Positions 6,911 through 26,231 of a stretch of 28,506 nt of DNA are shown here, piece by piece. The notes under the pieces were generated by a model that saw nothing but the letters and a program-made list of their open reading frames with translations, ran no database searches and was not told the DNA's origin. A program made the position numbers and the translations under genes. Position 1 is the stretch's first letter; the number at the start of each line of letters is the position of its first letter. This DNA is from Gemmatimonadaceae bacterium (GTDB lineage Bacteria > Gemmatimonadota > Gemmatimonadetes > Gemmatimonadales > Gemmatimonadaceae), in NCBI GenBank assembly GCA_035698205.1, contig DASSBZ010000017.1, positions 1 through 28,506 of the forward strand, read 5' to 3'.

Positions 6911-9279
6911 CACGCCAACCCCCGTCTGCGGCGCAACGCCCATTCACCCGCGAGCAGTCCAAGCAGGAGGAGGAAGATGATCGGCATGTCCCAAAGATCC
7001 AGGCGTTCCACCACCGTGTTGCCCCCCTCGGTATACACCAGGTCGCCCGCGAGCGCGTCCACTGTTTCAGGGGTGTAGTAGCGTCCCCCTGTCTCCTCGG
7101 CGACACGGCGCAGGAGCGATGCGCGCAGCTCCGCACCGAAGAACTCGTTGGTCACGTCGCCCACCTCCACGAAGGCCGGCGCGCTCGCCACCGTGTCGCC
7201 GCCGACGCGCGCCGACACCTCCACCCGGTGCACGCCGGTCTCCACCGGCGTGAACGCCACGTCGTACTCGCCGTCGCGCGTCACCGACCACTCGAGCGGC
7301 ACTTCCTGCACCACCCCCGACGGCGACGTGACCGATGCCGTCGCCTCCGCACTGTTGACGCGCAAAAAGGCGGCGTCGGCGACTTCGGCGCTCAGCGTCA
7401 CCGGCTCGCCGGGCGCGGCGCGATCGCTGGTCGCCATCACGTTCACGCGCCCGGGCACGTCACTCACCAGCCAGCGCAGCGTCTGCCGCCAGAACGACTC
7501 GTGCGACTGGTCATCCACCGGCACGTCAGCGTGCATCTGCCACAACCACGAATCCTGGATGGCCAGCGCGATCGACTTGCCGCGTCCGAAGCGCTGGAAG
7601 GCCATGACGATGTGCTTCCCGTCCCCGTCCACGCTGGTGCCGGTGAGCAGTGTCTGCGCGCCCGGACGAGTCCGCGCAATGCGATTCACCGTGCTCACGG
7701 GGGGCATCGTCTTCCAACGTTCCGCGGACTCCGCTTCCGTACCGGCAATCTGCGTTGTCGCGTGGCGTGCACCGGCCGGCGTCAGTTCCACGCGGATCTC
7801 GTCAAACGCGGGATCGCCCTCGCGCCCCGCGGTGAGCTCCACGGGCAGCACTTCCGCCAGCGGGGTACCCGCATATCCCCCTTCGGCAAACGACTGACGG
7901 CCGCCCAGCATCAGCAGCCCACCACCGCGCGTCCCCACGAAATCGGCCAGCATGCGCAACTGGTCGAGCGTGAAATAGCTGGCCTCGATGGATCCCAGCA
8001 CGATGCCCTTGTAGGCGAACAGCTCATCGCGCGACTTCGGAAAGCCGGAGAGCAGGTCGAGGCTGTCGTCCACGCTGAGGCGCAGGAATCGATCCTTCGC
8101 GGTACGCAGCAGCGTCACGACCTGGAGGTTCTCGTCGGATTCGACGGCCCGGCGCAGGAACTTCAGCTCGAAGCGCGGCTCACCCTCGATGTAGAGAATC
8201 TTCTCGCGGCGGTCGTTCACCACCACCAGCGCGCGTTGCGTGTTGTTCTCGGTCACAAGCTCGCCCGGCAGCGGCGCGATGCGGAACGTGAGCGGCCTGG
8301 CACCGGCGGCGATGGTCGGCACACGCGTTCTCACCGAAGCCACCTCGCCATCGCTTGGCAACGTGAACTTCTCGGTGCTCACGATCCGCCCGCTGTCCTC
8401 CACGACAAGCTCCGCCTGCTGCCCGCCGTAGCCGCGCTGCACCACCGAGGCATCCACCACAAGCGACGCTCCCTCCAGCACCTCGCGCGGCGCGTCGATA
8501 CGGCTGATCTCGATGTCCTGCGCGAAACGCTCGCGTCCGACGCCCACCGTGAAGACGGGGACGTGCCGGGCGCGGAGCGACGACAGCGTCTCGGTGAGCG
8601 CACCGCCGGAGTTGTCGGCGCCGTCGCTCACCAGCACGAGGCCGGAAAGCGGCACACCGTCGAGCTCCTGGCGAACCCCCTCGAGCGCGGGCGCGAGACG
8701 CGTGCGCGTACCGTCCCAGGTGAGGTCGGCCACCGCGTTCACCCGATCGCCGGCCGCCCCCGTCCGGAACAGGCGTACGACGAAGCGTTCGCCGAGCGAC
8801 TTGAACAGCGAGCTGTCGCGGCCGCCAAGGAGTGCACGCACCGCATCGGCGCGCGTGCGGCCATCGAGGTCGGCGATCTGCATGCTCCGCGAGTCGTCCA
8901 CCACGACTCCCACCACGTTGCGCTGCGGCACCGCGGCGGAAACGAGCAGCATCGGCCGCAGCAGCGCGAACAGCAGCAGGAGCACCACGGCCGCGCGGAG
9001 ACCGCCGAGCACGAAGCGCTGCCGCTCCCCGCCGCGCGGGCGCGTGCGCATGTACGTCGCGATCGCCGCCAGCGCCAGGACACCCGCCACGATCGCCGCC
9101 ACGCGCATGAAACCGGCGGCACCGAGGACGAACTGCCCCTTCTCGAACACCACGGGGCGGTACTTGAACAGGAACGCGAAGATCGATTCCACGGTTGATC
9201 CGTACCCCCGCGCCGCGGTTGACGTGCCGATGTGATCAATACGCTCGCGGATGACCGAGCGCTGACGGCTTTCCCGCAC
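6910..9279 (-). CDS. Large membrane-anchored VWA-domain protein of the Bat-like cluster
   Basis: N-terminal TM helices, VWA MIDAS motif VVGVVVDDSRSM...LVSDGADNSG, a mid-region with amidotransferase-like LLMLGG, and a C-terminal TM (MPIIFLLLLGLLAGEW). The start is GTG at 9279 or GTG at 9192; this is uncertain. Confidence 0.8.
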   Translation of the reverse strand: MRESRQRSVIRERIDHIGTSTAARGYGSTVESIFAFLFKYRPVVFEKGQFVLGAAGFMRVAAIVAGVLALAAIATYMRTRPRGGERQRFVLGGLRAAVVLLLLFALLRPMLLVSAAVPQRNVVGVVVDDSRSMQIADLDGRTRADAVRALLGGRDSSLFKSLGERFVVRLFRTGAAGDRVNAVADLTWDGTRTRLAPALEGVRQELDGVPLSGLVLVSDGADNSGGALTETLSSLRARHVPVFTVGVGRERFAQDIEISRIDAPREVLEGASLVVDASVVQRGYGGQQAELVVEDSGRIVSTEKFTLPSDGEVASVRTRVPTIAAGARPLTFRIAPLPGELVTENNTQRALVVVNDRREKILYIEGEPRFELKFLRRAVESDENLQVVTLLRTAKDRFLRLSVDDSLDLLSGFPKSRDELFAYKGIVLGSIEASYFTLDQLRMLADFVGTRGGGLLMLGGRQSFAEGGYAGTPLAEVLPVELTAGREGDPAFDEIRVELTPAGARHATTQIAGTEAESAERWKTMPPVSTVNRIARTRPGAQTLLTGTSVDGDGKHIVMAFQRFGRGKSIALAIQDSWLWQMHADVPVDDQSHESFWRQTLRWLVSDVPGRVNVMATSDRAAPGEPVTLSAEVADAAFLRVNSAEATASVTSPSGVVQEVPLEWSVTRDGEYDVAFTPVETGVHRVEVSARVGGDTVASAPAFVEVGDVTNEFFGAELRASLLRRVAEETGGRYYTPETVDALAGDLVYTEGGNTVVERLDLWDMPIIFLLLLGLLAGEWALRRRRGLA

Positions 9280-9954: not shown

Positions 9955-10884
9955 ATGTCCGGCCGAACGGTCACCACGAAGCCCCGCCCCACCACGTTTC
10001 TCGACGCGCCGCGCCTGTCCGACGACCTCGGACTCGAGCTCGTGCTTGCGTGCGAGACGTTCCAGATCACCGGCAGCTTCAAGTTCCGGGCGGCCTGGTC
10101 GCTGGCGGCGAATGTGCCGAATCCCCATGTGATCGCCGCGTCATCAGGAAACTTCGGGCAGGCGCTGGCGCTCGCCTGCAAGCTGTTCGGCAAGCGGAGC
10201 ACGATCGTCATGCCGGCCAACTCGGCCCGCGTCAAGATCGATGCGGTCCGCACCAACGGCGGGACGGTCGATCTCGTCGACACGACAAAGACGCCGCGAG
10301 CCGAGCGTGTGGCGGCGCTCGCCGATGCCGACCCCGAGGCATATGTCGCAAGCGCGTACGATGACCGCTGGGTCATCGAGGGGAACGCAACGCTGGGAGA
10401 CGAGGTCTGTCAGCGCGATCCGCGCCCCGAAGTCATCGTCGTCCCCGTCGGCGGTGGCGGACTCGCCTCGGGGATCGTCTCCGCGGTCCGGGCCGCGGGG
10501 CTGGCAGGGTCAGTGGCCGTCGTGGGCGCGGAACCGGCGCTGGCGAACGACGCCGCCCGATCGCTGCGCGAGGGGCGGATCGTCGCCAATGAATCGGAGC
10601 CACAGACCATGGCGGACGGCGCACGGACGCTCAGCGTGGGTGAGCAGAACTGGGCGCTGCTTCGCGATGGGCTCGAGACCATCGTCGAGGTTCCGGAGGA
10701 GCGCATCGTGGAGGCGCTGCGCCGCTACTTCGTGCAGGCAAACCTGAAGGTGGAACCGACGGGTGCGCTGGCGCTGGGCGCGATCCTCGCCAACCCCGAG
10801 CGCTTCAGCGGCCGCCGCACCTGCTGCGTGATCAGCGGCGGGAATGTCGATCCCGCGGTTTACGCACGGCTGCTCGTGGACTGA
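9955..10884 (+). CDS. PLP-dependent threonine/serine dehydratase-family enzyme (fold type II)
   Basis: PLP-lysine motif FQITGSFKFRAAW, glycine-rich VPVGGGGLASG loop, and length near 309 aa. Confidence 0.85.
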   Translation: MSGRTVTTKPRPTTFLDAPRLSDDLGLELVLACETFQITGSFKFRAAWSLAANVPNPHVIAASSGNFGQALALACKLFGKRSTIVMPANSARVKIDAVRTNGGTVDLVDTTKTPRAERVAALADADPEAYVASAYDDRWVIEGNATLGDEVCQRDPRPEVIVVPVGGGGLASGIVSAVRAAGLAGSVAVVGAEPALANDAARSLREGRIVANESEPQTMADGARTLSVGEQNWALLRDGLETIVEVPEERIVEALRRYFVQANLKVEPTGALALGAILANPERFSGRRTCCVISGGNVDPAVYARLLVD

Positions 10885-11810
10885 CGGGCAGCGCCGTTCG
10901 TCGTCGCCGGCGGTCCGGCGTCGGGTTGCGTATGATCACCCTCGAACGGCTCCATGTGCACCAGCACGCCGCTCACCTCCGGCACCGCCGCCATGATCGC
11001 GCGCTTCACCCGCCCGCTCAGGACGTGCGCATCGTGCAGCGACATGGTCGGCTCGGCCTGCACGTGGATGTCCACGTGATACACGAGTCCGGTCTTGCGA
11101 ACGTTCAGCTTTTCGATCGCCTGGACGTCGCTGGTGTTGCGCGCGGCGCGGGCCACCGGCTCGACCACGCTGGCGCCCGGTGCGCGATCCATCAGGTCGC
11201 CGGACGCACGACGCGCCAGTGACGTCGCGTTCCATGCGATCACGCCGGCCGCCAGCAGCGCCGCCCAGTCGTCGGCGGATTCCCATCCGGGCCCGCCCCA
11301 CAGCGCGATGCTGATCCCGATGAAAGCGGCTGCCGAGGTGACCGCGTCGCTCGCATGATGCCACGCATCAGCGCGCACAGCCGTGCTGGGCAGGCTGTCG
11401 CTCACACGCAGCACGCGCCGGAACAGCCCGAACTTCACGACCATCACCGTCACCAGCACCGCCAGCGTCCATGGCGCCGGCGTCAGGTGCGGCGTCCGGA
11501 TCTCGCGCACGGCTTCGAGCCCGACCCAGAGTGCCGCGCCCATCAGCATGACCGACACCGCGAGCCCCGCCAGCGAATCAGCCTTGCCGTAGCCGAACGG
11601 GTAGGCGTCGTCGGGATCGCGCGACGCGACTCGCAGCCCCCCCCACACCACGAGCGAGCCCAGCACGTCGGCCATCGACTCGACCGCATCGGCGACGAGC
11701 GCATAGGTATGGCCAAGCACGCCCGCGGTCGCCTTGACAGCGGCCAGCAGGATGTTGGTAACGAGGCCGACCTGAACCAGACGAATGCCGCGCAGGGAGG
11801 GATCCGGCAT
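10860..11810 (-). CDS. Cation diffusion facilitator (CDF) family metal efflux transporter
   Basis: Six TM helices plus a C-terminal cytoplasmic domain. His/Asp-rich helices (HASDAVTS, HTYALVADAVESMAD). ATG at 11810. The ORF-track N-terminal extension is unlikely. Confidence 0.85.
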   Translation of the reverse strand: MPDPSLRGIRLVQVGLVTNILLAAVKATAGVLGHTYALVADAVESMADVLGSLVVWGGLRVASRDPDDAYPFGYGKADSLAGLAVSVMLMGAALWVGLEAVREIRTPHLTPAPWTLAVLVTVMVVKFGLFRRVLRVSDSLPSTAVRADAWHHASDAVTSAAAFIGISIALWGGPGWESADDWAALLAAGVIAWNATSLARRASGDLMDRAPGASVVEPVARAARNTSDVQAIEKLNVRKTGLVYHVDIHVQAEPTMSLHDAHVLSGRVKRAIMAAVPEVSGVLVHMEPFEGDHTQPDAGPPATTNGAARQSTSSRA

Positions 11811-11920
11811 GCGAATGGAGGTAAGCGTATCGCGAGGGCCGGGGCAAGTGCGGGCGCGGTTGACGGTGGCGGTGAAGTCGCGTAGCTCTGGGAGTATCCA
11901 CATCCCGTCGGGAGCCGTTC

Positions 11921-12511
11921 ATGAAACGACGCCAGGCACTTCGTGTGCTCGGCTCGAGCGCCGCGGCAGCCGCGCTGCTGCCGTTCGCCCCGAGCGATGC
12001 GTTTGCCGCGGGCCGGGCAATCCATGACCGGTTGCAGCGTGGTGAACGTGTCGTCGATGGACTCACGGACGCGCAGTTGGCGCTCGTTGCCGCAGTCGCC
12101 GGGACGATCATTCCCGCCACCGACACACCGGGCGCCCGCGAGGCTCGCGTACACGAGTGGATCAACGTCGTGTACGCGGACTGGATGAGCGATTCCGAAC
12201 GCAGCGTCTTCTCGGCGGGGCTCGAATCGCTGGACGAAATGAGCCAGCGCGAGCACGGCACGACCGTGGCGCAGCTCGCGGAGCCCGATCGGCTGGCCCT
12301 GCTCACATCGGTGGATGCCATGGCGTTCGCGCCGCAACCATACGGCGCCCCGCCCCCTGCCTTCCGACGGCTCAAGCAGCTCGTCATCCACGGGTACTAC
12401 ACGTCCGAGATCGGCCAGCGCGAGGAGCTGAAGGTCGTCATCATTCCCGGTCGCTACGACAGCTGCCGGCAGATGCAGCCCGCACCCGGCGGCGGCGGGA
12501 GCGACAGATGA
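11921..12511 (+). CDS. Tat-signal small subunit of FAD-dependent dehydrogenase (gluconate 2-dehydrogenase subunit-3-like 'hitch-hiker' subunit), copy 1
   Basis: Twin-arginine signal MKRRQALRVLGSSAAAAALLPFA. Size near 196 aa. Stop overlaps the downstream GMC start (ATGA). GGGAG Shine-Dalgarno 6 nt upstream. Confidence 0.75.
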   Translation: MKRRQALRVLGSSAAAAALLPFAPSDAFAAGRAIHDRLQRGERVVDGLTDAQLALVAAVAGTIIPATDTPGAREARVHEWINVVYADWMSDSERSVFSAGLESLDEMSQREHGTTVAQLAEPDRLALLTSVDAMAFAPQPYGAPPPAFRRLKQLVIHGYYTSEIGQREELKVVIIPGRYDSCRQMQPAPGGGGSDR

Positions 12512-14190
12512 GGGCGGACTACGACGCGATCGTCATCGGTTCAGGCATCACCGGCGGCTGGGCGGCGAAGGAGCTCACCGAGCGCGGCCTGCGCACGCTC
12601 GTCCTCGAAGCGGGTGGACCGATCGACCCGCTGAAGGACTACGTGGAGCATGTCCCCCCGTACGAGCGAAAGTTCCGCGGCTACGGCGACCGCAAGGCGC
12701 TGGAGCGCGACCAGTTCGTGCAGAGGGCGTGCTATGCCTGCGACGAATACAGCGGCAAATTCTTCGTGAACGACCGCGAGAATCCGTACACCACCCCCGA
12801 TGATGCGCCCTTCGACTGGATCCGGGGGCGCCAGGTGGGTGGCCGTTCCATTACGTGGGGACGACAGGTGTATCGCTGGAGCGACCTCGATTTCGAGGCC
12901 AACCTGCGCGACGGGCATGGCGTGGACTGGCCCATCCGGTACGCCGACATCGCGCCCTGGTACGATCACGTGGAGTCGTTCATCGGCATCAGCGGCGAAG
13001 CGCTGGGGCTCGACCACCTCCCCGATGGCCGGTTCCTTCCCGGTATGGCGCTCAACTGCGCCGAGGAACGGGTGCGCGACCGGCTCGCGCCGCTGTTCGA
13101 CGGCTCACGCATCGTCACCATCGGCCGCGTTGCGATCCTCACGCAGAACCACAACGGTCGCGCCGCCTGTCATTACTGCGGTCCGTGCGAACGCGGCTGC
13201 ATCACGCGGTCGTACTTCAGCTCCATCGGCTCGACGCTCCCCGCCGCCGAGGCCACGGGCCGGCTTACGCTGCGCCCCTGGAGCGTCGTCTCGGAGATCA
13301 TCCACGATCCGTCCAGCGGGCGCGCCAGCGGCGTGCGCGTGATCGATGCGCAGTCGCACGAGACCATCGAGTTCGGCGCGCGCGTGGTGTTCCTCTGTGC
13401 ATCGGCGCTCGAGTCCGCGCGCATCCTGCTCAACTCACGCTCGGCGGCGTTTCCCGCGGGGCTGGCCAATTCCAGCGGAGAGCTCGGGCGGAACGTGATG
13501 GACCATTGCATGGGCGGCGGCGCGAACGGCTCGGTGGACGGTCTCGATGACCGGACGACGTTCGGCAACCGACCCACCGGCACGTACATGCCGCGCTTTC
13601 GCAACGTGACGGATCAGCACCCCGACTTCGTACGCGGCTATGCGTATCAGGGCGGCGCGAACCGGTCCGGGTGGCAGCGCGGCCAGTGGGGACGGGGTAT
13701 CGGCGCGGAGCTCAAGGAGCGGCTCCGATCCCCCGGCCCGTGGAACTTCGGGTTGTACGGCTTTGGGGAATGCCTCCCCCATCCGGAGAACCGGGTGTCG
13801 CTCGATCCCGACCGGAAGGACGCATGGGGAATCCCGGCGCTCCACATCGACGTGCGCTGGCGCGACAACGAGCGGAAGCTCCTGGAGGACATGTCGGTCC
13901 AGGCCGCCGAGATGCTCGAGGCGGCCGGATTGGGAAACGTGAGTCCGTACGTCAACGACAATCCCCCCGGACTCACCATTCATGAGATGGGGACGGCGCG
14001 GATGGGGCGCGATGCGAAGACGTCGGTACTCGACGCGCACAATGCGGCGTGGGACGTTCCGAATCTGTATGTTACCGACGGCGCGTGCATGGCTTCGTCG
14101 GCATGCCAGAATCCATCCATCACCTACATGGCGCTCACCGCGCGCGCGGCGGCGCACGCCGTGGAACGCATGAATCGCCGGGAGCTGTGA
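12508..14190 (+). CDS. GMC-family FAD-dependent oxidoreductase, catalytic subunit (copy 1)
   Basis: N-terminal DAIVIGSGITGGWAA Rossmann motif. Cys cluster NGRAACHYCGPCERGC. C-terminal GMC His/Asn active-site region (IHEMGTARMG...VTDGA). The true start is ATG at 12508, with GGGAG upstream; the ORF-track start at 12157 is an overextension. Confidence 0.9.
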   Translation: MRADYDAIVIGSGITGGWAAKELTERGLRTLVLEAGGPIDPLKDYVEHVPPYERKFRGYGDRKALERDQFVQRACYACDEYSGKFFVNDRENPYTTPDDAPFDWIRGRQVGGRSITWGRQVYRWSDLDFEANLRDGHGVDWPIRYADIAPWYDHVESFIGISGEALGLDHLPDGRFLPGMALNCAEERVRDRLAPLFDGSRIVTIGRVAILTQNHNGRAACHYCGPCERGCITRSYFSSIGSTLPAAEATGRLTLRPWSVVSEIIHDPSSGRASGVRVIDAQSHETIEFGARVVFLCASALESARILLNSRSAAFPAGLANSSGELGRNVMDHCMGGGANGSVDGLDDRTTFGNRPTGTYMPRFRNVTDQHPDFVRGYAYQGGANRSGWQRGQWGRGIGAELKERLRSPGPWNFGLYGFGECLPHPENRVSLDPDRKDAWGIPALHIDVRWRDNERKLLEDMSVQAAEMLEAAGLGNVSPYVNDNPPGLTIHEMGTARMGRDAKTSVLDAHNAAWDVPNLYVTDGACMASSACQNPSITYMALTARAAAHAVERMNRREL

Positions 14191-14195
14191 ACGCG

Positions 14196-15101
14196 ATGCC
14201 GAGGATCGACCGTCGGACGTTTCTTCGCAGGCTCGGCAGCTCAACGGCCGGGCTGGCGTCGTGGCCCATCGTTGCCGGTGCCGCCAGCGCAGTGGGCGCT
14301 GGCGCCCTCGCCGGGTGCGATACGTCCGCAGCGGGCAGCGCGACCACCGCCCTGCTCGACCGCATCGGGGTGCAGCTCTATACCCTGCGCACGGAGATGG
14401 AGAAGGGGGTGGGACCGGTGCTCGAGCAGGTGGCCAGGATCGGTTACAGCGAGGTGGAGTTCGCCGGCTACTTCAACCTGCCGCCTGCCGAGCTCCGATC
14501 GATGCTCGATGCCAACGGACTGACGGCGCCGTCGGCGCACGTCGATTTCAACGGGCTGCTGACATCCAGTGAGCCGGCGCTCGATGCCGCCGCGACCCTC
14601 GGTCACCAGTGGCTCGTGGTAGCCTGGCTTCCCACCGAACTGCGCGCCACGCTCGACGACTACAAGCGCCGTGCCGAGGACTTCAATCGGCTTGGCGAGG
14701 CCTGCGTCGCGCGCGGGATGCGCTTTGCCTACCACAATCACGACTTCGAGTTCGCGCCGCTCGATGGCGCCAAGGGGTACGACACACTGCTCGCCAACTG
14801 CGACCCGTCGCTCGTCGACTTCGAACTGGACCTGTTCTGGGTGACACGCGCGGGACAACAGCCGCTGGACTACTTCGCCCGTGCGCCGGGGCGCTTTCCG
14901 ATGGTGCACGCCAAGGACATGGACGGATCGCCCGAACATCGCATGGTGGACGTCGGCAGCGGCACCATCGACTTCGCCGCGATCTTCGCACGGGGCGAAC
15001 AGGCCGGCCTGCGCCACGTGTTCGTGGAGCACGACGAGCCAGCCGACCCGTGGGCGAGCGTACGCGCCAGCTTCACGGCACTGCGGGCCATGGATGCCTG
15101 A
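14196..15101 (+). CDS. Tat-exported sugar phosphate isomerase/epimerase (xylose-isomerase-like TIM barrel)
   Basis: Twin-arginine signal MPRIDRRTFLRRLGSS. TIM-barrel family motifs (YSEVEF, HNHDFEF, FVEHDEP). The start is ATG at 14196. Confidence 0.8.
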   Translation: MPRIDRRTFLRRLGSSTAGLASWPIVAGAASAVGAGALAGCDTSAAGSATTALLDRIGVQLYTLRTEMEKGVGPVLEQVARIGYSEVEFAGYFNLPPAELRSMLDANGLTAPSAHVDFNGLLTSSEPALDAAATLGHQWLVVAWLPTELRATLDDYKRRAEDFNRLGEACVARGMRFAYHNHDFEFAPLDGAKGYDTLLANCDPSLVDFELDLFWVTRAGQQPLDYFARAPGRFPMVHAKDMDGSPEHRMVDVGSGTIDFAAIFARGEQAGLRHVFVEHDEPADPWASVRASFTALRAMDA

Positions 15102-15987
15102 CGTGCCCGGCGCCATCTCCCGCCGATCGGCGTTAGGCGCGCTGGCAGGGGCGGCCGCGACGCTGGCGATCAGCGACACCGCCTCCGCGAGCACGCCATT
15201 ACCGCGTGAGCGCGGATCGGTACCCCTCCCGCCCGGGCGCCTCAACCAGTCGGTCTGCCGCTGGTGCTACGACGGCATCCCCCTCGAGCGGCTCGGCCGT
15301 GAGGCAAAGGCCATGGGGCTGCGCTCCGTCGAACTGCTTGGCGAGGCGGAGTGGCCGGTGATCCGTTCCCTGGGACTCACCTGCGCCATGGCCAACGGTC
15401 CCTCCACCATCACGCTCGGCTGGAACCGGCCGTCGGAGCACGATCGGCTGGTGGCCGAGTCGGAACGCCTCCTGCCGCTCGTCGCCGCCGAGGGGTTTCC
15501 GAATATGATCGTCTTCTCCGGCAACCGCGCCGGCATGTCGGATGGCGAGGGGCTGGAGAACTGCGCGCGCGGCCTGGCACGAATCGTTCACACGGCCGAA
15601 CGCACCGGTGTGACCGTCTGCATGGAACTGCTCAACAGCAAGGTCGATCACAAGGACTACATGTGCGACCACACGCCGTGGGGTGTGGAACTCGTGAAGC
15701 GCGTCGCTTCGCCCCGCTTCCGGCTCCTGTATGACATCTACCACATGCAGATCATGGAGGGGGACGTGATCCGCACCATCCGCGACCACCACGCATCCAT
15801 CGCGCACTATCACACCGGCGGGGTCCCCGGTCGCGCCGAGATCGACGGCTCGCAGGAGCTGAACTACCCGGCCATCATGCGCGCCATCGCGGAGACCGGA
15901 TACACCGGATGGGTGGGGCAGGAATTCGTGCCACGGCGCGATCCGCTCACGTCGCTGCGCGAGGGCGTTGCCATCTGCACCGTGTAA
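15094..15987 (+). CDS. Tat-exported hydroxypyruvate-isomerase-like TIM barrel (xylose-isomerase-like superfamily)
   Basis: SRRSALGALAGAAATLA Tat-like signal. C-terminal YHMQIMEGDV...HYHTGGVPGRAEIDGSQELNYPAIMRAIAETGYTGWVGQEFVP matches the Hyi-family signature. ATG at 15094 overlaps the upstream stop by 8 nt. Confidence 0.8.
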   Translation: MPDVPGAISRRSALGALAGAAATLAISDTASASTPLPRERGSVPLPPGRLNQSVCRWCYDGIPLERLGREAKAMGLRSVELLGEAEWPVIRSLGLTCAMANGPSTITLGWNRPSEHDRLVAESERLLPLVAAEGFPNMIVFSGNRAGMSDGEGLENCARGLARIVHTAERTGVTVCMELLNSKVDHKDYMCDHTPWGVELVKRVASPRFRLLYDIYHMQIMEGDVIRTIRDHHASIAHYHTGGVPGRAEIDGSQELNYPAIMRAIAETGYTGWVGQEFVPRRDPLTSLREGVAICTV

Positions 15988-16065
15988 TGAGCACGTGCGA
16001 TGGTTGACGACGCCGCGCGCGCGCGGTAGCTCTCCGCCACATCTTCACGGGAGAGCATTCGTACC

Positions 16066-17760
16066 ATGCAGATCCAGCGACAACGCCCCGAGTTCGATGT
16101 CGTCATCGTGGGTTCGGGGGCCGGCGGCGGCATGGCCGCCTGGAGCCTGACCCGTTCGGGGGCGCGCGTTGCGCTGCTCGAGGCGGGGTCCATGTGGGAC
16201 CCGGCGAAGGACGGCGCGATGCTGAAGTGGCCCTACGAGAGCCCGCGCCGCGGTGCCTCGACGCGCGAACGGCCGTTCGGGGAGTTCGACGGATGCATCG
16301 GCGGCTGGCAGATCGACGGCGAGCCATACACCACGGCCCCCGGCACGCAGTTCAACTGGTGGCGCGCCCGCATGCTCGGCGGGCGCACCAACCACTGGGG
16401 GCGCATCTCGCTCCGCTTCGGACCGAAGGACTTCCGGCACAAGAGCGTCGACGGACTGGGCGACGACTGGCCCATCTCCTACGACGACGTCAAGCCGTAC
16501 TACGACGAAGTCGACAAGCTGGTCGGGATCTTCGGCAGCATGGAGAACCTGCCCAACGAACCGGATGGCATCTTCCATGAGCCGCCGGCCCCGCGCTGCT
16601 ATGAGCACCTCGTCAAGCGCGCCTCCGACCGGCTCGACATCACCTGCATCCCGTCGCGGCTGTCGATCATCACCCGGCCGCACAACGGCCGCGCGCCCTG
16701 CCACTACTGCGGGCAGTGCAATCGCGGCTGCATGACGAACTCCAACTTCTCGTCGACCGGCGTGCTGATCCCGCCGGCGCAGGCCACCGGGCGGCTCACG
16801 CTGATCACCGATGCCATGGCTCGCGAGGTGAGCGTCGGCTCCGATGGACGCGCCACCGGCGTGCACTACGTGAACACACGGACCGGTGCCGACGAACATG
16901 TACGTGGGCGCGTGGTGGTCCTCGCCGCGAGCGCCTGCGAGACGGCCCGGCTCCTGCTCAATTCGAAGAGTTCGCGGTTCCCCGAGGGCCTCGCGAATTC
17001 CAGCGGCACGGTGGGCAAGTACCTCACCGACACCACCGGCAGCGACGCGGCCGGGAGAATCCCGGCGCTCTACGACAACCTGCCGCACAACGAGGACGGC
17101 GTGGGCGGCATGCATGTGTACATGCCCTGGTGGCTGGACAACGCGAAGCTGGACTTTCCGCGCGGCTATCACATCGAGGTGTGGGGCGGCCGCGGCACGC
17201 CCGGCGCGGGGTTCATGGGAGGCATTCACCGGTGGCCGTCGGGCGGTGGCTACGGCGCCTCGCTCAAGGATGATTACCGACGCTACTACGGCTCCGTGGT
17301 AGGCTTCTCGGGACGCGGCGAGATGATCCCCAACGAGGACTGCTACTGCGAGATCGATCCCGGCGTGTTGGACCGGTTCGGCATTCCCGTGCTGCGGTTC
17401 CACTGGAAGTGGTCCGATCACGAGTACCTGCAGGCGAAGCACATGCAGGAGACCTTCCGCTCGATCATTCGCGAGATGGGCGGCACGCCGACCAGCGAGA
17501 TGCCATCGCGCGAGAGCGGCTATGGCCTGCACAACGGTGGCGCGATCATCCACGAGCTCGGCGGCGCCCGCATGGGCAACGATCCGGGAACGTCGGTCGT
17601 GGACTCCAACTGCCGCGCGCACGACGTGCAGAACCTGTTCGTGGCCGACGGCGCACCGTTCGTGAGCCAGGCGGACAAGAATCCCACCTGGACGATTCTC
17701 GCGCTGAGCATGCGCACCAGCGACTTCATCGCGGCCGAGCGCAAGCGGGGGGCGCTATGA
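16066..17760 (+). CDS. GMC-family FAD-dependent oxidoreductase, catalytic subunit (copy 2, paralog of 12508-14190)
   Basis: DVVIVGSGAGGGMAA Rossmann motif. The same Cys cluster, NGRAPCHYCGQCNRGC. C-terminal IHELGGARMG...VADGA. Clearly paralogous to copy 1. Confidence 0.9.
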   Translation: MQIQRQRPEFDVVIVGSGAGGGMAAWSLTRSGARVALLEAGSMWDPAKDGAMLKWPYESPRRGASTRERPFGEFDGCIGGWQIDGEPYTTAPGTQFNWWRARMLGGRTNHWGRISLRFGPKDFRHKSVDGLGDDWPISYDDVKPYYDEVDKLVGIFGSMENLPNEPDGIFHEPPAPRCYEHLVKRASDRLDITCIPSRLSIITRPHNGRAPCHYCGQCNRGCMTNSNFSSTGVLIPPAQATGRLTLITDAMAREVSVGSDGRATGVHYVNTRTGADEHVRGRVVVLAASACETARLLLNSKSSRFPEGLANSSGTVGKYLTDTTGSDAAGRIPALYDNLPHNEDGVGGMHVYMPWWLDNAKLDFPRGYHIEVWGGRGTPGAGFMGGIHRWPSGGGYGASLKDDYRRYYGSVVGFSGRGEMIPNEDCYCEIDPGVLDRFGIPVLRFHWKWSDHEYLQAKHMQETFRSIIREMGGTPTSEMPSRESGYGLHNGGAIIHELGGARMGNDPGTSVVDSNCRAHDVQNLFVADGAPFVSQADKNPTWTILALSMRTSDFIAAERKRGAL

Positions 17761-17809
17761 CACAGGGACCATCAGGCCGCTCAGGCGCGCTGCACAGGGG
17801 AGGTCGCTC

Positions 17810-18442
17810 ATGACGACGGTTGATCGACGCGAAGCGCTCAAGGTGATGGCCACCACCGCGGCCGCCGGCCTCGCCGGCTTCCGGGAGGATGACCTGCTGG
17901 CCGCACGCGAGGTCGCGGTGCGCGCGAGCGCTGCCCGCCGCGCCGGAGCCCAGGCGTACGCGCCGCAGTTCTTCACCGACGAGGAATGGAAGACCGTGCG
18001 CGTGCTGGTGGACGACATCATTCCACGCGACGAGCGTTCGGGATCGGCCACCGATGCCGGTGTGCCGGAGTACATCGACTTCCTCCTGTTCGACCAGACC
18101 CCCGCTGGAGATCGACAGGCCCCTTCGTCGGCGCAGGTGGGCATTCGTGGCGGGCTTCGGTGGCTGGACGGCGAGAGCCGATCGCGCAATGACGGCAAGG
18201 CGTACGCGGACTGCACTGCTGCGCAGCGCCACGCCATCCTCGATGACATCGCCTGGCCCGAGCGCGCACGACCGGAGTTTTCGCACGGCGTTGCGTTCTT
18301 CACCCGGATGCGCGATCTCACGGGATCCGGGTTCTTCTCGTCGAAGATGGGAGTCGAGGACCTTCGCTACACCGGCAACACGGTGGTACCTCGCTGGACC
18401 GGGTGCCCGGAGCCGGTGCTGCGGAAGCTCGGCATCTCCTGA
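17810..18442 (+). CDS. Tat-signal small subunit of FAD-dependent dehydrogenase (subunit-3-like), copy 2
   Basis: Twin-arginine signal MTTVDRREALKVMATTAAAGLAG. GGGGAGG Shine-Dalgarno 6 nt upstream. Paralogous to 11921-12511 (shared ...IIP..D..G...........). Confidence 0.75.
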   Translation: MTTVDRREALKVMATTAAAGLAGFREDDLLAAREVAVRASAARRAGAQAYAPQFFTDEEWKTVRVLVDDIIPRDERSGSATDAGVPEYIDFLLFDQTPAGDRQAPSSAQVGIRGGLRWLDGESRSRNDGKAYADCTAAQRHAILDDIAWPERARPEFSHGVAFFTRMRDLTGSGFFSSKMGVEDLRYTGNTVVPRWTGCPEPVLRKLGIS

Positions 18443-18488
18443 GCATCGTGCGGCGCCCATGACACCTTCTCAACGGCGGGAGACGTCC

Positions 18489-19724
18489 ATGTCGCGACTC
18501 GGCATCGGGTTCATCGGATCCGGTTTCAATACACGCTTTCACCTGCAGGCGCTGGTGGCGGTTCGTGACGTCGACGTCTACGGCATCTGGTCGCCCACGT
18601 CGAAGAATGCCGCCGCCACGGCGCGCTTCGCGCGCGAACTCGGCGTGGGCCCCGCCGAGCCGTTTCGCACCATCACTGACATGGTCGCCGATCCCCGGAT
18701 CGACGCGATCTGGCTGTGCGGGCCGAACCAGGCACGCGTCGAGAACGTGGAGGAGATCGTCCACGCAATGGAAAGCGGTGCCGGAACATTGCGTGCGATC
18801 GCCGTGGAGAAGCCGCTCGCACGCAACGTTGCCGAGGCGAAGCAGGTACTGGCGCTGATCGAGCGCGCCGGGCTCGCGCACGGCTACCTGGAGAACCAGG
18901 CGTTCGCGCCGCAGGTGGAGCACGGTCGTGCGCTCATCTGGGCGCGCGGTGCCGCGCTGACCGGGCGTCCCTTTCTCGCCCGCGCCTCCGAAGAGCACAG
19001 TGGACCACATTCGCCCTGGTTCTGGCAGGGGAAGTTGCAGGGGGGCGGCGTGCTGAACGACATGATGTGCCACAGCGCGCTCGTCGTCCGGCAGTTGCTG
19101 ACCAGGCCCGGTGATTCGTTGTCGACGTTGAAGCTGACGAACGTCACCGGCCACATCGCCAGCCTCAAATGGTCACGACCGGCCTATGCGAAGCAACTTC
19201 GCGCGCGGATGGGCAAGGAGGTTGATTACACGAAGCGCCCATCCGAGGATTTCGCCAGCCTGACGCTCGAGTTCGAAACCCCCGACGGCCATGTTGTCAT
19301 CGGCGAGGCATCCACGTCGTGGAGCTTCGTTGGGGCCGGGCTGCGACTGTCGGCCGAACTGCTGGGTCCTGAATACTCGATGTCGTGGAACACGCTCGAC
19401 TCCGGGCTCAACCTCTTCTTCTCGCGCGAGGTGAAGGGGAAGACCGGTGAAGATCTGGTGGAAAAGCAGAACGCCGAGATGGGGCTGATGCCGGTGGTGG
19501 CCAACGAACCGTCGGTCTACGGCTACGAGGGCGAAGATCGCCACATGGTGCGCTGCTTCCTCACGGGCGAGACGCCGTCGCTCACGCTGCACGACGGACT
19601 CGATGTCGTACGCATCCTCATGGCGGCATACATGAGCGCGGAGTCGGGAAAAACGGTGTCGTTCCCGCCACGCGGTCTCGACCGGTTCGTCCCCGCGGTC
19701 GCGCAGGGCACATGGAAGCCATGA
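18489..19724 (+). CDS. Gfo/Idh/MocA-family NAD(P)-dependent oxidoreductase (no signal peptide)
   Basis: N-terminal Rossmann GIGFIGSGFNTRFHLQAL, EKPLA motif, and length near 411 aa. ATG at 18489 with GGGAG 6 nt upstream. The ORF-track start at 17889 is an overextension. Confidence 0.85.
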   Translation: MSRLGIGFIGSGFNTRFHLQALVAVRDVDVYGIWSPTSKNAAATARFARELGVGPAEPFRTITDMVADPRIDAIWLCGPNQARVENVEEIVHAMESGAGTLRAIAVEKPLARNVAEAKQVLALIERAGLAHGYLENQAFAPQVEHGRALIWARGAALTGRPFLARASEEHSGPHSPWFWQGKLQGGGVLNDMMCHSALVVRQLLTRPGDSLSTLKLTNVTGHIASLKWSRPAYAKQLRARMGKEVDYTKRPSEDFASLTLEFETPDGHVVIGEASTSWSFVGAGLRLSAELLGPEYSMSWNTLDSGLNLFFSREVKGKTGEDLVEKQNAEMGLMPVVANEPSVYGYEGEDRHMVRCFLTGETPSLTLHDGLDVVRILMAAYMSAESGKTVSFPPRGLDRFVPAVAQGTWKP

Positions 19725-19734
19725 CCGGCTCCTC

Positions 19735-20298
19735 ATGAGCACGTTCTTTCTCACCTGCGCGATTCTTGGCGGCAGTATTGTCGTCATCCAGTTCGTGCTG
19801 GGCATCGTCGGCGGACACATGCTCGTCGACGCCGACGATGCGATCGACACCGGCGTGCACGATGGCCTCGACCTGCGGAGCATCCGCGCGCTGTCCGCCG
19901 GACTTGCCTTCTTCGGAGTGGGCGGGCTGCTGGGACTGCAACTCGGCATCGGAGTCGTGCTCGCGACGGCGCTGGCGATTGCCGCGGGCGGCGCTGCATC
20001 GATGGCCACCGCCGCGGCGCTGCGCGCCATCCGGCGCCTCGAGCGCGACGGGACCATCTCGCTCCAGAACGCGGTCGGCACCTCCGGCACCGTCTACGTC
20101 TCCATTCCCGGCGAACGATCGGGCGCCGGCAAGGTCCACCTCAGCGTCCAGAACCGGTTCATGGAGTGCGCCGCTGTCACCCCTGGCGCTTCCCTCGCCG
20201 CCGGCGCTCCCGTGCTCGTGATCGACGTGTCGAGTTCCGACACGCTCGTCGTCGTTCCAAACCCCACGTTGATCGAGGAATCCGATGCCACGTCCTGA
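19735..20298 (+). CDS. NfeD-family membrane protein (OB-fold C-terminus)
   Basis: Two or three N-terminal TM helices. C-terminal beta-rich GTVYVSIPG...GAPVLVIDV domain. Located immediately upstream of, and overlapping, the flotillin gene, which is the classic NfeD-SPFH pairing. Confidence 0.75.
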   Translation: MSTFFLTCAILGGSIVVIQFVLGIVGGHMLVDADDAIDTGVHDGLDLRSIRALSAGLAFFGVGGLLGLQLGIGVVLATALAIAAGGAASMATAAALRAIRRLERDGTISLQNAVGTSGTVYVSIPGERSGAGKVHLSVQNRFMECAAVTPGASLAAGAPVLVIDVSSSDTLVVVPNPTLIEESDATS

Positions 20299-21946
20299 TG
20301 TAGTCCTCCTGCTGCAGGGGGGCGTGATCGAGAATCTCCCCCTCATGTCCGTCGTGATTCCGGCACTGGTGGTGCTCGTGGTCGGCGGGCTGGTCGCCCT
20401 GGTTGCCGCACGCTACAAGCGCTGCCCCGCCAACCGCGTGCTCGTCATCTCCGGCAAGGTCGCCGGGGAGGAGAGCGCGCGCTGCATCTCGGGTGGCGGC
20501 GCATTCATCTTCCCGATCATCCAGGAGTACGCGTACCTCTCGCTGGAGCCGATCCAGATTGACATCCCGCTCAAGGATGCGCTCTCGCTCGAGAACATTC
20601 GCGTCGCGGTGCCCAGCGTGTTCACGGTGGCCATCGGCACCGAGGCGGACATCAGGCAGAACGCCGCGATCCGCCTCCTCGGCCTCACCTACGAGCAGAT
20701 TCGCCGCCAGGCCCAGGACATCATCTTCGGACAGTTGCGGCAGGTGATCGCCTCGATGCGCATCGAGGAGATCAACCGTGATCGCGACGGCTTCCTCCAC
20801 AAGATCCTGACATCGCTGGAGCCGGAACTGAAGAAGATCGGCCTCGTGCTGATCAACGTGAACATCACGGACCTCAAGGACGACAGCGGTTATATAGAGG
20901 CGATCGGCAAGAAGGCCGCCGCCATGGCAGTGCAGCAGGCGCGTGGCGACGTGGCGGAGCAGGAGAAGCTGGGTGAAGTGCGCGTCGCCGAAGCCGATCG
21001 CGATCGCACCGTGGCCGTCGCCGACGCGAACAAGCTTCGCGAGATCGGGGTGCGGGAGGCCGACCGCGAGAAGCTCGTGCGCATCGCGGAACTCGACAAG
21101 GAGCAGCAGGTAGGCGAGCAGCGCGCGGCCTACGAGCGCGAGGCCATCATCAAGGATGCCGAACGCGAGAAGCGCGTCGCCATGGCCGATGCCGAGGCGA
21201 AGGCAATCGACGGCGAAGCGCACTCGCTGGCGCTCGTCGCTGCCTCACGCGCCACGCTGGCGGTGAAGGAAGCCGACGCCTACCAGCTTGCCGAGACGCG
21301 CAAGCGGGAAGCCGAAGCGCTGGTGCAGGAAGCGCAGAACCGGGCGATGGCGCGGGCAGCAATCGCCGAGGCCGAGCGGGTGGAAGCCGAGCGTCGCGCG
21401 GAGCTCGAGGCACCAGCGAAGGCTGCCAAGGCAACGACCATCGTGGAGGCCGAGGCTTCGGCCGAGCGCGTGCGGATCGCCGCCGAAGCGGAGGCTCGGG
21501 CGATCTACGTGAAGCTCGAGGCCGAAGCGCGGGGCGAGTACGAGATTCTCGCGCGCAAGGCCGATGCGATGCGGCAGCTTGTCGAAGCCGCCGGCGGCGC
21601 GCGCGAGGCCTATCAGTTGCTGATGCTCGAACACCTCGACACGCTCGCCGAGACGTCGGCCAAGGCCATCTCGAACATCAAGTTCGACAAGGTTGTGGTC
21701 TGGGACAGCGGGCGCGATGGCGGGAGCGGCGGTGCTGCCGGATTCCTGCAGAGCATGGCCCAGACCATGCCGCCGATCATGAACGTGCTCCGCGATATCG
21801 GGGGCATCGACCTGCCGGGCTTCGGGGCGCCGGTGGAGCGGGAGATCGTGCTCGATGGCGCCGATGACGTGCCGGTGCCGGTGTCCTCGCGGAAGACGGG
21901 AACGGCCGGCGCGGTGTCGAAGTCCGACAGCGCGGCGAGCAACTGA
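20285..21946 (+). CDS. Flotillin-like SPFH/band-7 domain protein with long EA-rich coiled coil
   Basis: N-terminal TM MSVVIPALVVLVVGGLVALVAARYKRCPANRVLVISGK resembles the FloT start. SPFH core. EAEARA/AEAER-rich coiled-coil tail. ATG at 20285 has a GAGGAA Shine-Dalgarno; the alternative start is ATG at 20345. Confidence 0.85.
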   Translation: MPRPDVVLLLQGGVIENLPLMSVVIPALVVLVVGGLVALVAARYKRCPANRVLVISGKVAGEESARCISGGGAFIFPIIQEYAYLSLEPIQIDIPLKDALSLENIRVAVPSVFTVAIGTEADIRQNAAIRLLGLTYEQIRRQAQDIIFGQLRQVIASMRIEEINRDRDGFLHKILTSLEPELKKIGLVLINVNITDLKDDSGYIEAIGKKAAAMAVQQARGDVAEQEKLGEVRVAEADRDRTVAVADANKLREIGVREADREKLVRIAELDKEQQVGEQRAAYEREAIIKDAEREKRVAMADAEAKAIDGEAHSLALVAASRATLAVKEADAYQLAETRKREAEALVQEAQNRAMARAAIAEAERVEAERRAELEAPAKAAKATTIVEAEASAERVRIAAEAEARAIYVKLEAEARGEYEILARKADAMRQLVEAAGGAREAYQLLMLEHLDTLAETSAKAISNIKFDKVVVWDSGRDGGSGGAAGFLQSMAQTMPPIMNVLRDIGGIDLPGFGAPVEREIVLDGADDVPVPVSSRKTGTAGAVSKSDSAASN

Positions 21947-21954
21947 GGTCAGGG

Positions 21955-21990
21955 GGCCGGCATCGCGGATGATGCCGGCCAACTGTTGGT
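21955..21990 (+). terminator. putative intrinsic terminator after the flotillin gene
   Basis: Perfect 10-bp inverted repeat ggccggcatc / gatgccggcc with a 6-nt loop (21955-21980), followed by aactgttggt, 9 nt after the stop codon. The tail is only weakly T-rich, as expected in high-GC genomes. Confidence 0.45.
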
Positions 21991-22044
21991 GCAGCGAGAC
22001 TGCCCGGACGCTCCATCTCAGGAATCACAACAGCAGCGACACCG

Positions 22045-22449
22045 TCAGTCGAGCCCCGTGAGTGAGAAACGGTATGTGAACGTGCTGTCAAAGAAGAAAT
22101 ACACCGCGGGGTAGTCGCCCAGTTCAAAGGGACGGAGCACCCAGGCGTACCCCGCCTGCACCACGAAGCCATCCTGAATCTGCTTCGTGCTGTCTGCCGG
22201 GGACAGCGACCCATTGTACGAAGCAACAATGGCATCGCAGACCGTGCTGTCTGTTTCCATCCGCACGACGGCGGGCTTGTAGGGAATTCCATTCGAGACG
22301 AGAGCCGCTGAATCGCTGAACGACAGCGTGCCATGTACGAACGCGACGAGTCCGGCGGTGTCGCCAGTCGTCAGGCAGGACTGGACGATGGATCGACTGT
22401 TCTCCCCGGAGAGCGTACCAACTGTGGCAGCCAGCAGGGCCGTTGCCAC
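22045..22449 (-). CDS. hypothetical small beta-rich, possibly secreted protein in a lower-GC islet
   Basis: 134-codon ORF with an alternative (GTG) start. Local GC is near 57% against about 70% in the flanks. Ser/Thr/Gly/Phe/Tyr-rich with two Cys. Hydrophobic N-terminus ATALLAATVGTLSG. No recognisable family and no clear ribosome-binding site. Confidence 0.35.
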   Translation of the reverse strand: MATALLAATVGTLSGENSRSIVQSCLTTGDTAGLVAFVHGTLSFSDSAALVSNGIPYKPAVVRMETDSTVCDAIVASYNGSLSPADSTKQIQDGFVVQAGYAWVLRPFELGDYPAVYFFFDSTFTYRFSLTGLD

Positions 22450-26177: not shown

Positions 26178-26231
26178 GATCTCGGGATGCGTAACCGGTG
26201 AGTGACTACGGGATGGACGGTCGAAGATCGA

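Follow-up and report, generated by a model that had tools for sequence, protein, structure and literature searches.

The window analyzed here is the entire 28,506-bp contig DASSBZ010000017.1 of a metagenome-assembled Gemmatimonadaceae bacterium (G+C content of about 68%), and it harbors seven co-directional open reading frames (ORFs) on the plus strand, designated g1 to g7, which jointly span exactly positions 11921 to 19724. Judging from the gene sequences, this locus is likely to supply most components of a periplasmic pathway of the type 'oxidise, eliminate, hydrate, reduce', by which O-glycosides would be broken down via 3-keto intermediates. A preliminary description of the block had already proposed hitch-hiker dehydrogenases and the logic of 3-keto-glycoside oxidation and elimination, and this proposal gains support from the match of g3 to 3-keto-glycoside lyases, from the retention of the catalytic residues and from synteny across phyla. 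Similarly, the seven co-directional genes and the domains assigned to them there agree with the coordinates and the Pfam matches given below.

The block g1 to g7 and the predicted lyase g3

The intergenic spacing from g1 to g7 amounts, in order, to -4, 5, -8, 78, 49 and 46 nt. Hence, the first four genes are close together, overlapping by 4 nt and 8 nt at two junctions and being separated by 5 nt at the third, and larger gaps occur only after g4; the stop codon of g1 overlaps the start codon of g2 (ATGA). A scan of positions 11400-22200 for promoters and terminators returned no sites, a result that is uninformative on operon boundaries in a GC-rich genome. The first gene, g1 (11921-12511, +), encodes a small protein of 196 aa with a predicted signal for twin-arginine translocation (Tat) and a PF13618 domain (Gluconate_2-dh3, E 2.9e-29), which is predicted to act as hitch-hiker subunit for g2 (12508-14190, +), the 560-aa catalytic subunit of a GMC-type flavin adenine dinucleotide (FAD) dehydrogenase with the domains GMC_oxred_N and GMC_oxred_C. 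The two following genes, g3 (14196-15101, +) and g4 (15094-15987, +), code for Tat-signal TIM-barrel proteins of family PF01261, xylose-isomerase-like in the case of g3 and hydroxypyruvate-isomerase-like in that of g4. The block is completed by a second GMC FAD dehydrogenase catalytic subunit, g5 (16066-17760, +; 564 aa, GMC_oxred_N and GMC_oxred_C), by its putative small Tat-signal hitch-hiker subunit g6 (17810-18442, +; 210 aa, PF13618, E 2.3e-27), and by g7 (18489-19724, +), a 411-aa Gfo/Idh/MocA oxidoreductase dependent on nicotinamide adenine dinucleotide (phosphate) (NAD(P)) with GFO_IDH_MocA Pfam domains.

The central component of the proposed route is g3, a predicted metal-dependent 3-keto-beta-O-glycoside 1,2-lyase. 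As a single sequence, g3 matched over its full mature length the solved lyases 8TCT, 8TCD/8TCR and 8TCS (E 5e-27 to 3e-25), which, like the 8TD* entries mentioned below, are assigned to the study of Nasseri et al. (bioRxiv 10.1101/2024.03.25.586180) only through their molecule names, the name of 8TDI ('P2B11 Glucuronide-3-dehydrogenase') and the structure list of the preprint. A match of the same extent (E 1.3e-24) was obtained for 8BVK, the structure of the Agrobacterium 3-keto-O-glycoside beta-eliminase AtOGE (PMC10628242). With a profile of the g3 family, the E-values for these lyases reached 4e-46 to 1.7e-40, and IolE followed as the next family at 2e-13; the IolE model was weakly matched by g3 itself. 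Residues H115, H180, H182, D212, W215, H238 and E278 of g3 are invariant among the aligned homologs, and the motifs AYHNHDFE, FELDLFW, HAKD and VEHD align with their counterparts in AtOGE and the 8TC* proteins. Based on the roles described for these positions as metal ligands or as catalytic and substrate-binding residues (PMC10628242; bioRxiv 10.1101/2024.03.25.586180), the metal ligands His/Asp/His (+Glu), the catalytic His of the HxH motif, the Trp and the Glu of the lyase family are all kept in g3. The comparison marks g3 as a clear homolog of the 3-keto-O-glycoside 1,2-lyases, for which lyase activity is predicted. In the alignment, residue 10 of AtOGE pairs with residue 57 of g3, and the approximately 50 extra N-terminal residues of g3 hold both a Tat signal and a lipobox: the motif RRTFLRR is followed by LAGC, within residues 1-41. 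The protein is probably a Tat-exported lipoprotein. The combination of Tat motif and lipobox was found in 10 of 82 g3 homologs, mostly from Gemmatimonadota.

Export signals, dehydrogenases and the second TIM barrel

Twin-arginine motifs, each followed by a hydrophobic stretch, are present in g1 (KRRQALR; N-terminus MKRRQALRVLGSSAAAAALLPFAPSDAFA), g3 (DRRTFLRR), g4 (SRRSALG) and g6 (DRREALK). The proteins g2, g5 and g7 begin directly at the Rossmann GxGxxG motif, which leaves no room for a signal peptide; the N-terminus of g7, MSRLGIGFIGSGF, accordingly contains none. The motif was also searched for, by a twin-arginine regular expression applied to the region upstream of the aligned homologs, in 80 related loci, which are the best 80 from a pattern scan with the g3 alignment that gave at least 600 matches using one genome per species. 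Among the families predicted to be exported, it occurred in 24 of 25 g1-like, 16 of 16 g6-like, 81 of 82 g3-like and 29 of 30 g4-like proteins, and in 14 of the 16 Tat-type Gfo proteins that resemble h2, a gene of the second cluster described below. The background, which stems from read-through into GC-rich upstream sequence, is given by the g2-like (4/28), g5-like (3/17) and g7-like (2/9) proteins, and DUF1080 proteins have Sec or lipoprotein signals instead (twin-arginine motif in 1 of 21). These frequencies indicate that the motifs in the block exceed chance and are kept in exactly those components that are predicted to be exported. Both TIM barrels had been read before as Tat-signaled and, by prediction, periplasmic, which is well supported by these numbers. 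The same description had, however, regarded their export by Tat as unusual; as the pattern is conserved across both TIM families, it appears to be the rule, and AL1, a periplasmic lyase with a Sec signal, has already been published (Nasseri et al., bioRxiv 10.1101/2024.03.25.586180).

The pairs g1/g2 and g5/g6 each combine a signal-less GMC protein, an adjacent PF13618 subunit with a Tat signal and a Cys-rich motif in the catalytic subunit, as in hitch-hiker dehydrogenases. The absence of signal peptides from the GMC proteins and the adjacent Tat-signal subunits had been noted in the preliminary description, in accordance with the GxGxxG starts and the conserved twin-arginine motifs reported above. 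Both g2 and g5, which are paralogs with 37.5% identity, are full-length relatives of the catalytic subunit of FAD-glucose dehydrogenase (FAD-GDH; 6A2U) and of the large subunit of fructose dehydrogenase (FDH; 7W2J). These two are the best solved relatives of g2 (E about 1e-30), and g5 matches 6A2U with an E-value of 1.2e-48; the PsG3Ox-type C-glycoside 3-oxidase 7QF8 was matched only over the C-terminal domain. The Cys-rich motif reads CHYCGPCERGC in g2 and CHYCGQCNRGC in g5 (C-x2-C-x2-C-x3-C), the latter aligning with the stretch CCGNNNCMPIC of FAD-GDH, which we take to provide the ligands of a 3Fe-4S cluster. Because of this motif, g2 and g5 are predicted to be electron-transferring dehydrogenases rather than oxidases.

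We predict that g2 is a glycoside 3-dehydrogenase of the LacA/GlycDH type, and it is the gene context that suggests oxidation at C3 for both g2 and g5. For g2, this context comprises 3-keto-glycoside clusters of Hymenobacter, Xanthomonas, Halomonas and Pedobacter, whose GMC genes are 51-53% identical to g2 and, in Xanthomonas and Halomonas, adjoin an ortholog of AtOGE (58-62% identity). Orthologs of g5 with about 80% identity are widespread in Gemmatimonadaceae, and g6 always follows g5 in the relatives examined. In other Gemmatimonadaceae, g5-g6 pairs of this degree of identity also stand alone, with a cupredoxin gene but no TIM barrels in their vicinity. This cupredoxin gene (PF00127) is found at a distance of 0.2-4.5 kb downstream of the lone pair, at positions 12594-13016 of L006, 16813-17211 of L007, 12752-13150 of L008 and 12759-13157 of L009 (related loci are numbered with the prefix L where they have to be told apart), and its product is a candidate electron acceptor that might replace cytochrome c; the window itself contains no cupredoxin gene. 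In a further Gemmatimonadaceae genome, a gene with a photosynthetic-reaction-center-type cytochrome c domain (PF02276; L001, 3662-5343) precedes a g3 homolog of 52% identity.

The second TIM barrel, g4, has no detectable sequence similarity to g3. It scored 93.2 bits against TIGR03234 (Hyi), for which the cut-off is 353, and 93.8 bits against NF043033 (OtnI) with a cut-off of 325, and as it thus falls far below both NCBIfam thresholds, it is related to the hydroxypyruvate and 2-oxo-tetronate isomerase families but is not a member of either. Its neighbors in profile searches were 3NGF, ketose 3-epimerases, YgbM and the Escherichia coli 3-keto-D-glucoside 4-epimerase YcjR. The same neighbors were returned by Foldseek with an AlphaFold model of g4, which was built on an alignment of closer homologs and has a mean predicted local distance difference test (pLDDT) score of 79.9, with lower values for the signal peptide. 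Homologs of g4 are 47-74% identical across phyla. A strict tie of g4 to the cluster was considered and rejected, since homologs are found alone elsewhere, namely in two contexts. A literature search for recent work on glucal hydratases or g4-like enzymes yielded nothing on the g4 family. Probably, g4 would abstract a proton beside a keto group, leading to epimerization, isomerization or hydration. The earlier view of both TIM barrels as lyases is thus tenable for g3, which matches lyases, and not for g4, the nearest relatives of which are hydroxypyruvate-isomerase/OtnI-like proteins together with keto-sugar epimerases. Protein g4 is also probably not the equivalent of the Agrobacterium protein AtHYD (41 kDa; PMC10628242): the mature g4 is smaller, at about 27 kDa, and a g4-type gene co-occurs in Xanthomonas and Hymenobacter with a separate TIM-barrel gene of about 350 codons, annotated as 'sugar phosphate isomerase/epimerase' (L090, 15896-16948, and L004, 9374-10426, respectively), the size of which fits AtHYD.

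The two TIM barrels also bear on the question of whether g3 and/or g4 might cleave a C-C bond, i.e. whether the locus mediates C-glycoside deglycosylation in the manner of CarA/CarBC or DgpA/DgpBC, a link which the preliminary description had drawn. The overall chemical logic would be the same, and CarBC, DgpBC and PuCGE share with the proteins of the block the xylose-isomerase-like TIM fold and with the proposed route the metal-assisted beta-elimination after oxidation at C3 (PMC10628242). Moreover, the related GlycDH can oxidize flavonoid C-glucosides (PMC10628242), and the g4 model resembles a Microbacterium C-glucosyl deglycosidase, although this protein ranked only 26th in the Foldseek search and the likeness is at fold level. 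However, sequence searches with g3, g4 and the family profiles returned no match to C-glycoside deglycosidases, which in the case of the g3 family profile extends to E ≤ 0.1, and the gaps of -8 to 78 nt within the block leave no unassigned ORF for a small second subunit like PuCGE-beta or DgpB. The GMC proteins are of the Fe-S dehydrogenase type and resemble 7QF8 only in the C-terminal domain. In addition, the characterized relatives of g3 act on O-glycosides: AtOGE is described as specific for these (PMC10628242), and AL1 and BT1 leave 3-keto-C-glycosides intact (bioRxiv 10.1101/2024.03.25.586180). C-glycoside cleavage by this locus is therefore regarded as highly improbable, and the comparison with CarBC and DgpBC did not bear out the earlier link.

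Related loci, the second cluster and the modularity of the block

The 80 loci come from Gemmatimonadota, Acidobacteriota, Bacteroidota, Rhodothermales, Balneolales and Gammaproteobacteria. At no more than 10 kb from the g3 homolog, a GMC gene of the g2/g5 type was present in 47 of them, a g4 homolog in 31, DUF1080 and MFS genes in 21 each, a Tat-type Gfo gene in 16 and a g7 homolog in 9; these counts are lower bounds because many of the contigs are short. The exact order g1 to g7 recurs in L018, in which a DUF1080 gene directly follows g7, and in L042, in which h2 and h3 are located downstream on the opposite strand. The order g1 to g6 is found in L010 and g3-g4-g5-g6-g7 in L011-L013, and g1-g2-g3-g4 stand alone in at least six loci. 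A g5-type GMC gene follows the g3 homolog directly, without g2, in L026, L041, L075 and L093, the last of these having a compact cluster of g3-g5-g6-g7-CutC together with MFS-DUF1080. The triad g5-g6-g7, in which stop and start codons overlap, is kept in L011-L013, L018, L026, L032, L037, L042, L076, L092 and L093. Homologs of g2 and g3 with 47-55% identity are also present on the megaplasmids of Gemmatirosa kalamazoonensis, a cultured relative. Outside the phylum, clusters on a Hymenobacter plasmid and a Xanthomonas replicon comprise genes for a GMC protein, its small subunit, a 'nucleoside permease', a Gfo protein, several TIM barrels, a DUF1080 protein and a small c-type cytochrome, to which the Xanthomonas cluster adds a LacI regulator, and the Pedobacter and Flavobacterium loci unite in one block the orthologs of g2 (51-52% identity), h2, h4, h3, g4 (51-53%) and g3 (41-43%).

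In the window, h2, h3 and h4 form a second cluster on the minus strand (24849-28225), outside the range covered by the preliminary description. About 280 nt past this cluster the contig comes to its end, and further genes of the cluster may be cut off at this point. The product of h2 (24849-26177, -) is a Gfo/Idh/MocA protein (PF01408 and PF19051) with an N-terminal Tat signal (DRREFV), and it matches 8TDF (E 4e-98) and 8TDH (E 3.6e-95); it is thus predicted to be a periplasmic glycoside 3-dehydrogenase like AL3/BT3. The gene h3 (26232-27485, -, in an ORF that extends to 27707, so that the start codon is uncertain) encodes an MFS transporter of the 'nucleoside H+ symporter' type (PF03825, E 7e-121) and shares 42-74% identity with the 'nucleoside permease' genes inside related clusters. 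Finally, h4 (27479-28225, -) encodes a putative lipoprotein of the DUF1080/3-keto-disaccharide hydrolase family (PF06439, E 9e-52) with a signal peptide ending in AAAGC. It is similar to AL2/BT2, with matches to 8TDA/8TDE (E 1.7e-36) and 8RR2 (E 2.5e-36). The identification of h2 changes the view of g7, which had been counted as the Gfo-type oxidase of the locus: it is h2 that has the features of a periplasmic Gfo 3-dehydrogenase. The lack of a signal peptide makes g7 more likely to reduce 3-keto-sugars in the cytoplasm than to act as another oxidase in the periplasm; its solved relatives are weak (E 1e-13).

The linked genes also help to judge whether the block might serve a ketogenic periplasmic oxidation of sugars, sugar acids or polyols as in Gluconobacter or Pantoea, like that by gluconate 2-dehydrogenase or by sorbitol, fructose or glucose dehydrogenase, with the TIM barrels acting as keto-sugar isomerases rather than lyases. 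Such a function would fit the PF13618 small subunits, the family of which is named for subunit 3 of gluconate 2-dehydrogenase, the nearest solved relatives of the GMC proteins, i.e. glucose and fructose dehydrogenases, the similarity of g4 to hydroxypyruvate and oxo-tetronate isomerases and to ketose epimerases, and the weak IolE match of g3. Yet the g3 profile matches proven lyases far better than IolE (4e-46 as opposed to 2e-13) with the catalytic residues kept, and the window links the block to a DUF1080 gene, an AL3-like dehydrogenase and an MFS transporter typical of the related clusters. In addition, GMC orthologs of 51-53% identity reside in clusters with AtOGE orthologs, and genetic work in Caulobacter ties clusters of this kind to the use of lactose, salicin and raffinose (PMC9007349). 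A ketogenic function of this sort therefore appears improbable.

A different possibility is that two or three independent modules adjoin each other in the locus. In this case, g1-g4 would form a LacABC/GlycDH-type glycoside module, whereas g5-g6-g7 would constitute a separate module of periplasmic oxidation and cytoplasmic reduction which acts on another substrate, such as a different class of sugar or an alcohol that is not a glycoside, and does not feed g3 or g4. This would be in line with the low identity of g2 and g5 (just 37.5%), with the 78-nt gap between g4 and g5 compared to the overlaps and the 5-nt gap inside g1-g4, with the lone g5-g6 pairs of about 80% identity that have a cupredoxin gene adjacent and no TIM barrels, and with the position of g5-g6-g7 after a GH20 gene in L092. 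On the other hand, g5-type GMC genes directly follow a g3-type lyase gene in the four loci without g2, in L093 accompanied by MFS and DUF1080 genes, DUF1080 genes are located within 10 kb even of lone g5-g6 pairs, and the order g3-g4-g5-g6-g7 is repeated in L011-L013, L018 and L042. Thus, we consider a complete functional separation of the two parts rather unlikely and favor a common 3-keto-glycoside route. It is evident, nevertheless, that the block is modular and not indivisible, since some of its genes are also found without the rest. The GH20 genes, which encode beta-hexosaminidases, are located at 5578-7659 beside g5-g6-g7 in L092 and at 14593-16179 in L018, where the seven-gene block lies a few kb upstream; such neighbors may point to the class of substrate on which the second dehydrogenase acts.

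Between the two clusters lies a gene of the CutC family (22589-23278, -; PF03932, E 3e-62), which is a possible accessory component. A CutC gene directly follows the g7 ortholog in L093 (11248-12012, with overlapping stop and start codons), and in L032 it is located between g7 and the MFS gene (about 15951-16631). To our knowledge, no role in sugar metabolism has been established for CutC; from these positions it might tentatively be speculated that CutC may have an unrecognized part in the pathway as it occurs in Gemmatimonadota. A secreted beta-propeller protein similar to glucose/sorbosone dehydrogenases (GSDH, PF07995) is encoded between CutC and h2 (23323-24585, +), and GSDH-like genes were also observed near g3 or g4 homologs in L053 and L003. 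Starting 10 nt after g7, genes for an NfeD-like membrane protein and a flotillin/SPFH protein with a mutual overlap of 14 nt occupy positions 19735-21946 (+). They were considered as members of the operon and rejected, as they are absent from all related loci; relative to the gene order of L093, the pair looks like an insertion between g7 and CutC. Upstream of the block, the first third of the contig is taken up by an unrelated operon of the MoxR AAA+ ATPase/DUF58/DUF4159/TPR-peptidase/VWA-like (Bat-like) type (416-9279, -), followed by a gene for a pyridoxal phosphate-dependent enzyme (9955-10884) and a cation-diffusion-facilitator gene (10860-11903, -), which is divergent from g1.

Proposed route and comparison with known systems

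In the route we propose, the FAD/Fe-S dehydrogenases g2 and g5 would fold in the cytoplasm, and Tat would carry each of them out on its small subunit, g1 or g6, respectively. In the periplasm, they would then oxidize the C3 hydroxyl group of the sugar at the non-reducing end of the glycoside, as the gene context suggests, and the electrons would exit via the Fe-S cluster to a carrier encoded outside the window. By homology to AL3, h2 with its bound NAD would offer a second, redox-neutral way to the 3-keto-glycoside. Judged from its homology and conserved active site, g3 would remove H2 and eliminate the aglycone from 3-keto-beta-glycosides, giving rise to 2-hydroxy-3-keto-glucal, while h4, based on its homology to AL2/BT2, would carry out the same elimination on alpha-anomers and, in addition, hydrate the glucal to the 3-keto-sugar. 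The function of g4 might be to epimerize or isomerize the 3-keto-glycoside or the 3-keto-sugar, or to hydrate the glucal. The context of h3 and g7 suggests that the sugar or keto-sugar product would be imported by h3 and that g7 would reduce the 3-keto-sugar to an ordinary hexose in the cytoplasm. This role is proposed for g7 because of the conserved g5-g6-g7 linkage and the published Gfo reductase of Agrobacterium, which converts 3-keto-glucose to glucose (PMC10628242).

A number of points weigh against this route and limit the confidence in it. Its support within the contig and the phylum is at the sequence level, and signal peptides were recognized from the motif and its conservation rather than by a trained predictor. 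The regiochemistry of g2 and g5 at C3 is unreadable from their sequences, and their closest solved relatives act at C1 of glucose and C5 of fructose. As stated in the preliminary description, the window lacks a cytochrome c gene, no CxxCH motif being present in any frame of the 28.5 kb; such a gene could be located elsewhere in the genome, but related clusters in Bacteroidota, Xanthomonas, Hymenobacter and at some Gemmatimonadota loci often include a small one. A regulator, which likewise had not been seen before, is also missing: among the main ORFs of the window, no transcription-factor or other regulator domain, outer-membrane transporter or glycoside hydrolase was found, so that there is no hint at the substrate. 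The window further contains no homolog of the TIM-barrel gene of about 350 codons. Finally, g4 homologs and g5-g6 pairs are also found in isolation elsewhere, and not every gene of the block need share a single substrate.

A comparison with published systems reveals several counterparts of the locus. LacABC, the work on which by Arellano (2010) is cited here as described by Price (2022, PMC9007349) and Liu (2021, PMC8121099), consists of three components and is cytochrome c-dependent (PMC8121099). For the use of lactose, Caulobacter relies on LacABC together with a DUF1080 protein, two 'sugar epimerases', a transporter and a reductase (PMC9007349), clusters of the LacABC type being tied to lactose, salicin and raffinose use, and comparable clusters have been described in Pedobacter (sp. 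GW460), Echinicola and other Bacteroidetes (PMC9007349; PMC8121099). The window shares with them the combination of GMC protein, DUF1080 protein, two TIM-barrel 'sugar epimerases', transporter and Gfo-type reductase, and with the related Hymenobacter and Xanthomonas clusters also the small PF13618 subunit. It differs in that it has two pairs of GMC protein and small subunit and no cytochrome c, and in that its genes are distributed over two clusters of opposite orientation with no visible regulator. In Agrobacterium tumefaciens, GlycDH, Gfo, AtOGE and AtHYD are encoded in one operon, in which the flavoenzyme GlycDH is a glycoside 3-dehydrogenase that needs a 'TAT-pathway signal protein' as partner (Bitter et al. 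2023, PMC10628242). The likeness to this operon comprises the flavoenzyme with its Tat partner, the TIM-barrel beta-eliminase, of which g3 keeps the Mn site and the catalytic His, and the Gfo reductase; a TIM barrel of the size of AtHYD is missing from the window.

With the gut systems BT2156-2160 of Bacteroides thetaiotaomicron and AL1-AL5 of Alistipes, the window has in common the AL1/BT1-like g3, the AL2/BT2-like h4 and the AL3/BT3-like h2 (a Tat-type, NAD-bound Gfo protein), the genes of which lie within 14 kb in the two clusters on opposite strands; the cytosolic Gfo protein AL4/BT4 is a possible counterpart of g7. AL2/BT2-type proteins have been described as both 3-keto-alpha-glucoside lyases and glucal hydratases (bioRxiv 10.1101/2024.03.25.586180). 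In contrast, the gut systems have neither GMC dehydrogenases, in line with the lack of LacABC in B. thetaiotaomicron (PMC8121099), nor a g4-type protein, the signal of AL1 is of the Sec and not of the Tat type, and their SusR/DUF6377 regulator was not found in the window. FAD-GDH of Burkholderia (6A2U) and FDH of Gluconobacter (7W2J) resemble g2 and g5 over the full length and in the division into a signal-less catalytic and a small Tat subunit, but their substrates are free glucose, oxidized at C1, or fructose, oxidized at C5, and they possess a multi-heme cytochrome c subunit, whereas the context in the window suggests a glycoside C3. CarBC, DgpBC and PuCGE differ by the lack of sequence similarity to g3 and g4 and by their second small subunit, which has no counterpart in the block.

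The differences from the published systems are variations within a known kind of pathway. They consist in the two GMC pairs, the absence of a linked cytochrome c, the lyase as a predicted Tat-lipoprotein, the lack of a TIM barrel of the size of AtHYD, the conserved g5-g6-g7 triad and the split into two clusters. It might be hypothesized that Gemmatimonadota have a hitherto undescribed form of the route, in which two paralogous Fe-S flavoproteins operate without a dedicated cytochrome c, perhaps with a cupredoxin instead, g4 catalyzes a step not assigned so far and CutC contributes as a further component; we regard this combination as possible but doubtful. In such a form, the step of g4 may be, for example, an epimerization of 3-keto-glycosides in the periplasm that widens the substrate range, or the hydration of the glucal.

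The 3-keto route is a recently recognized alternative to glycoside hydrolases, and work on it has so far dealt with gut Bacteroidales, Agrobacterium and Caulobacter. The loci compared here suggest that Gemmatimonadota, which are abundant in soil, carry a flavoprotein-driven version of it that would be linked to respiration; a GMC gene is located near the lyase gene in 47 of the 80 loci. The g4 family, the g5 paralog with its conserved partner g7 and the electron acceptor would be suitable targets to fill gaps in the pathway. With such a flavoprotein-driven 3-keto version present in Gemmatimonadota, an annotation in the style of CAZy would miss part of the capacity of this phylum to degrade glycosides.

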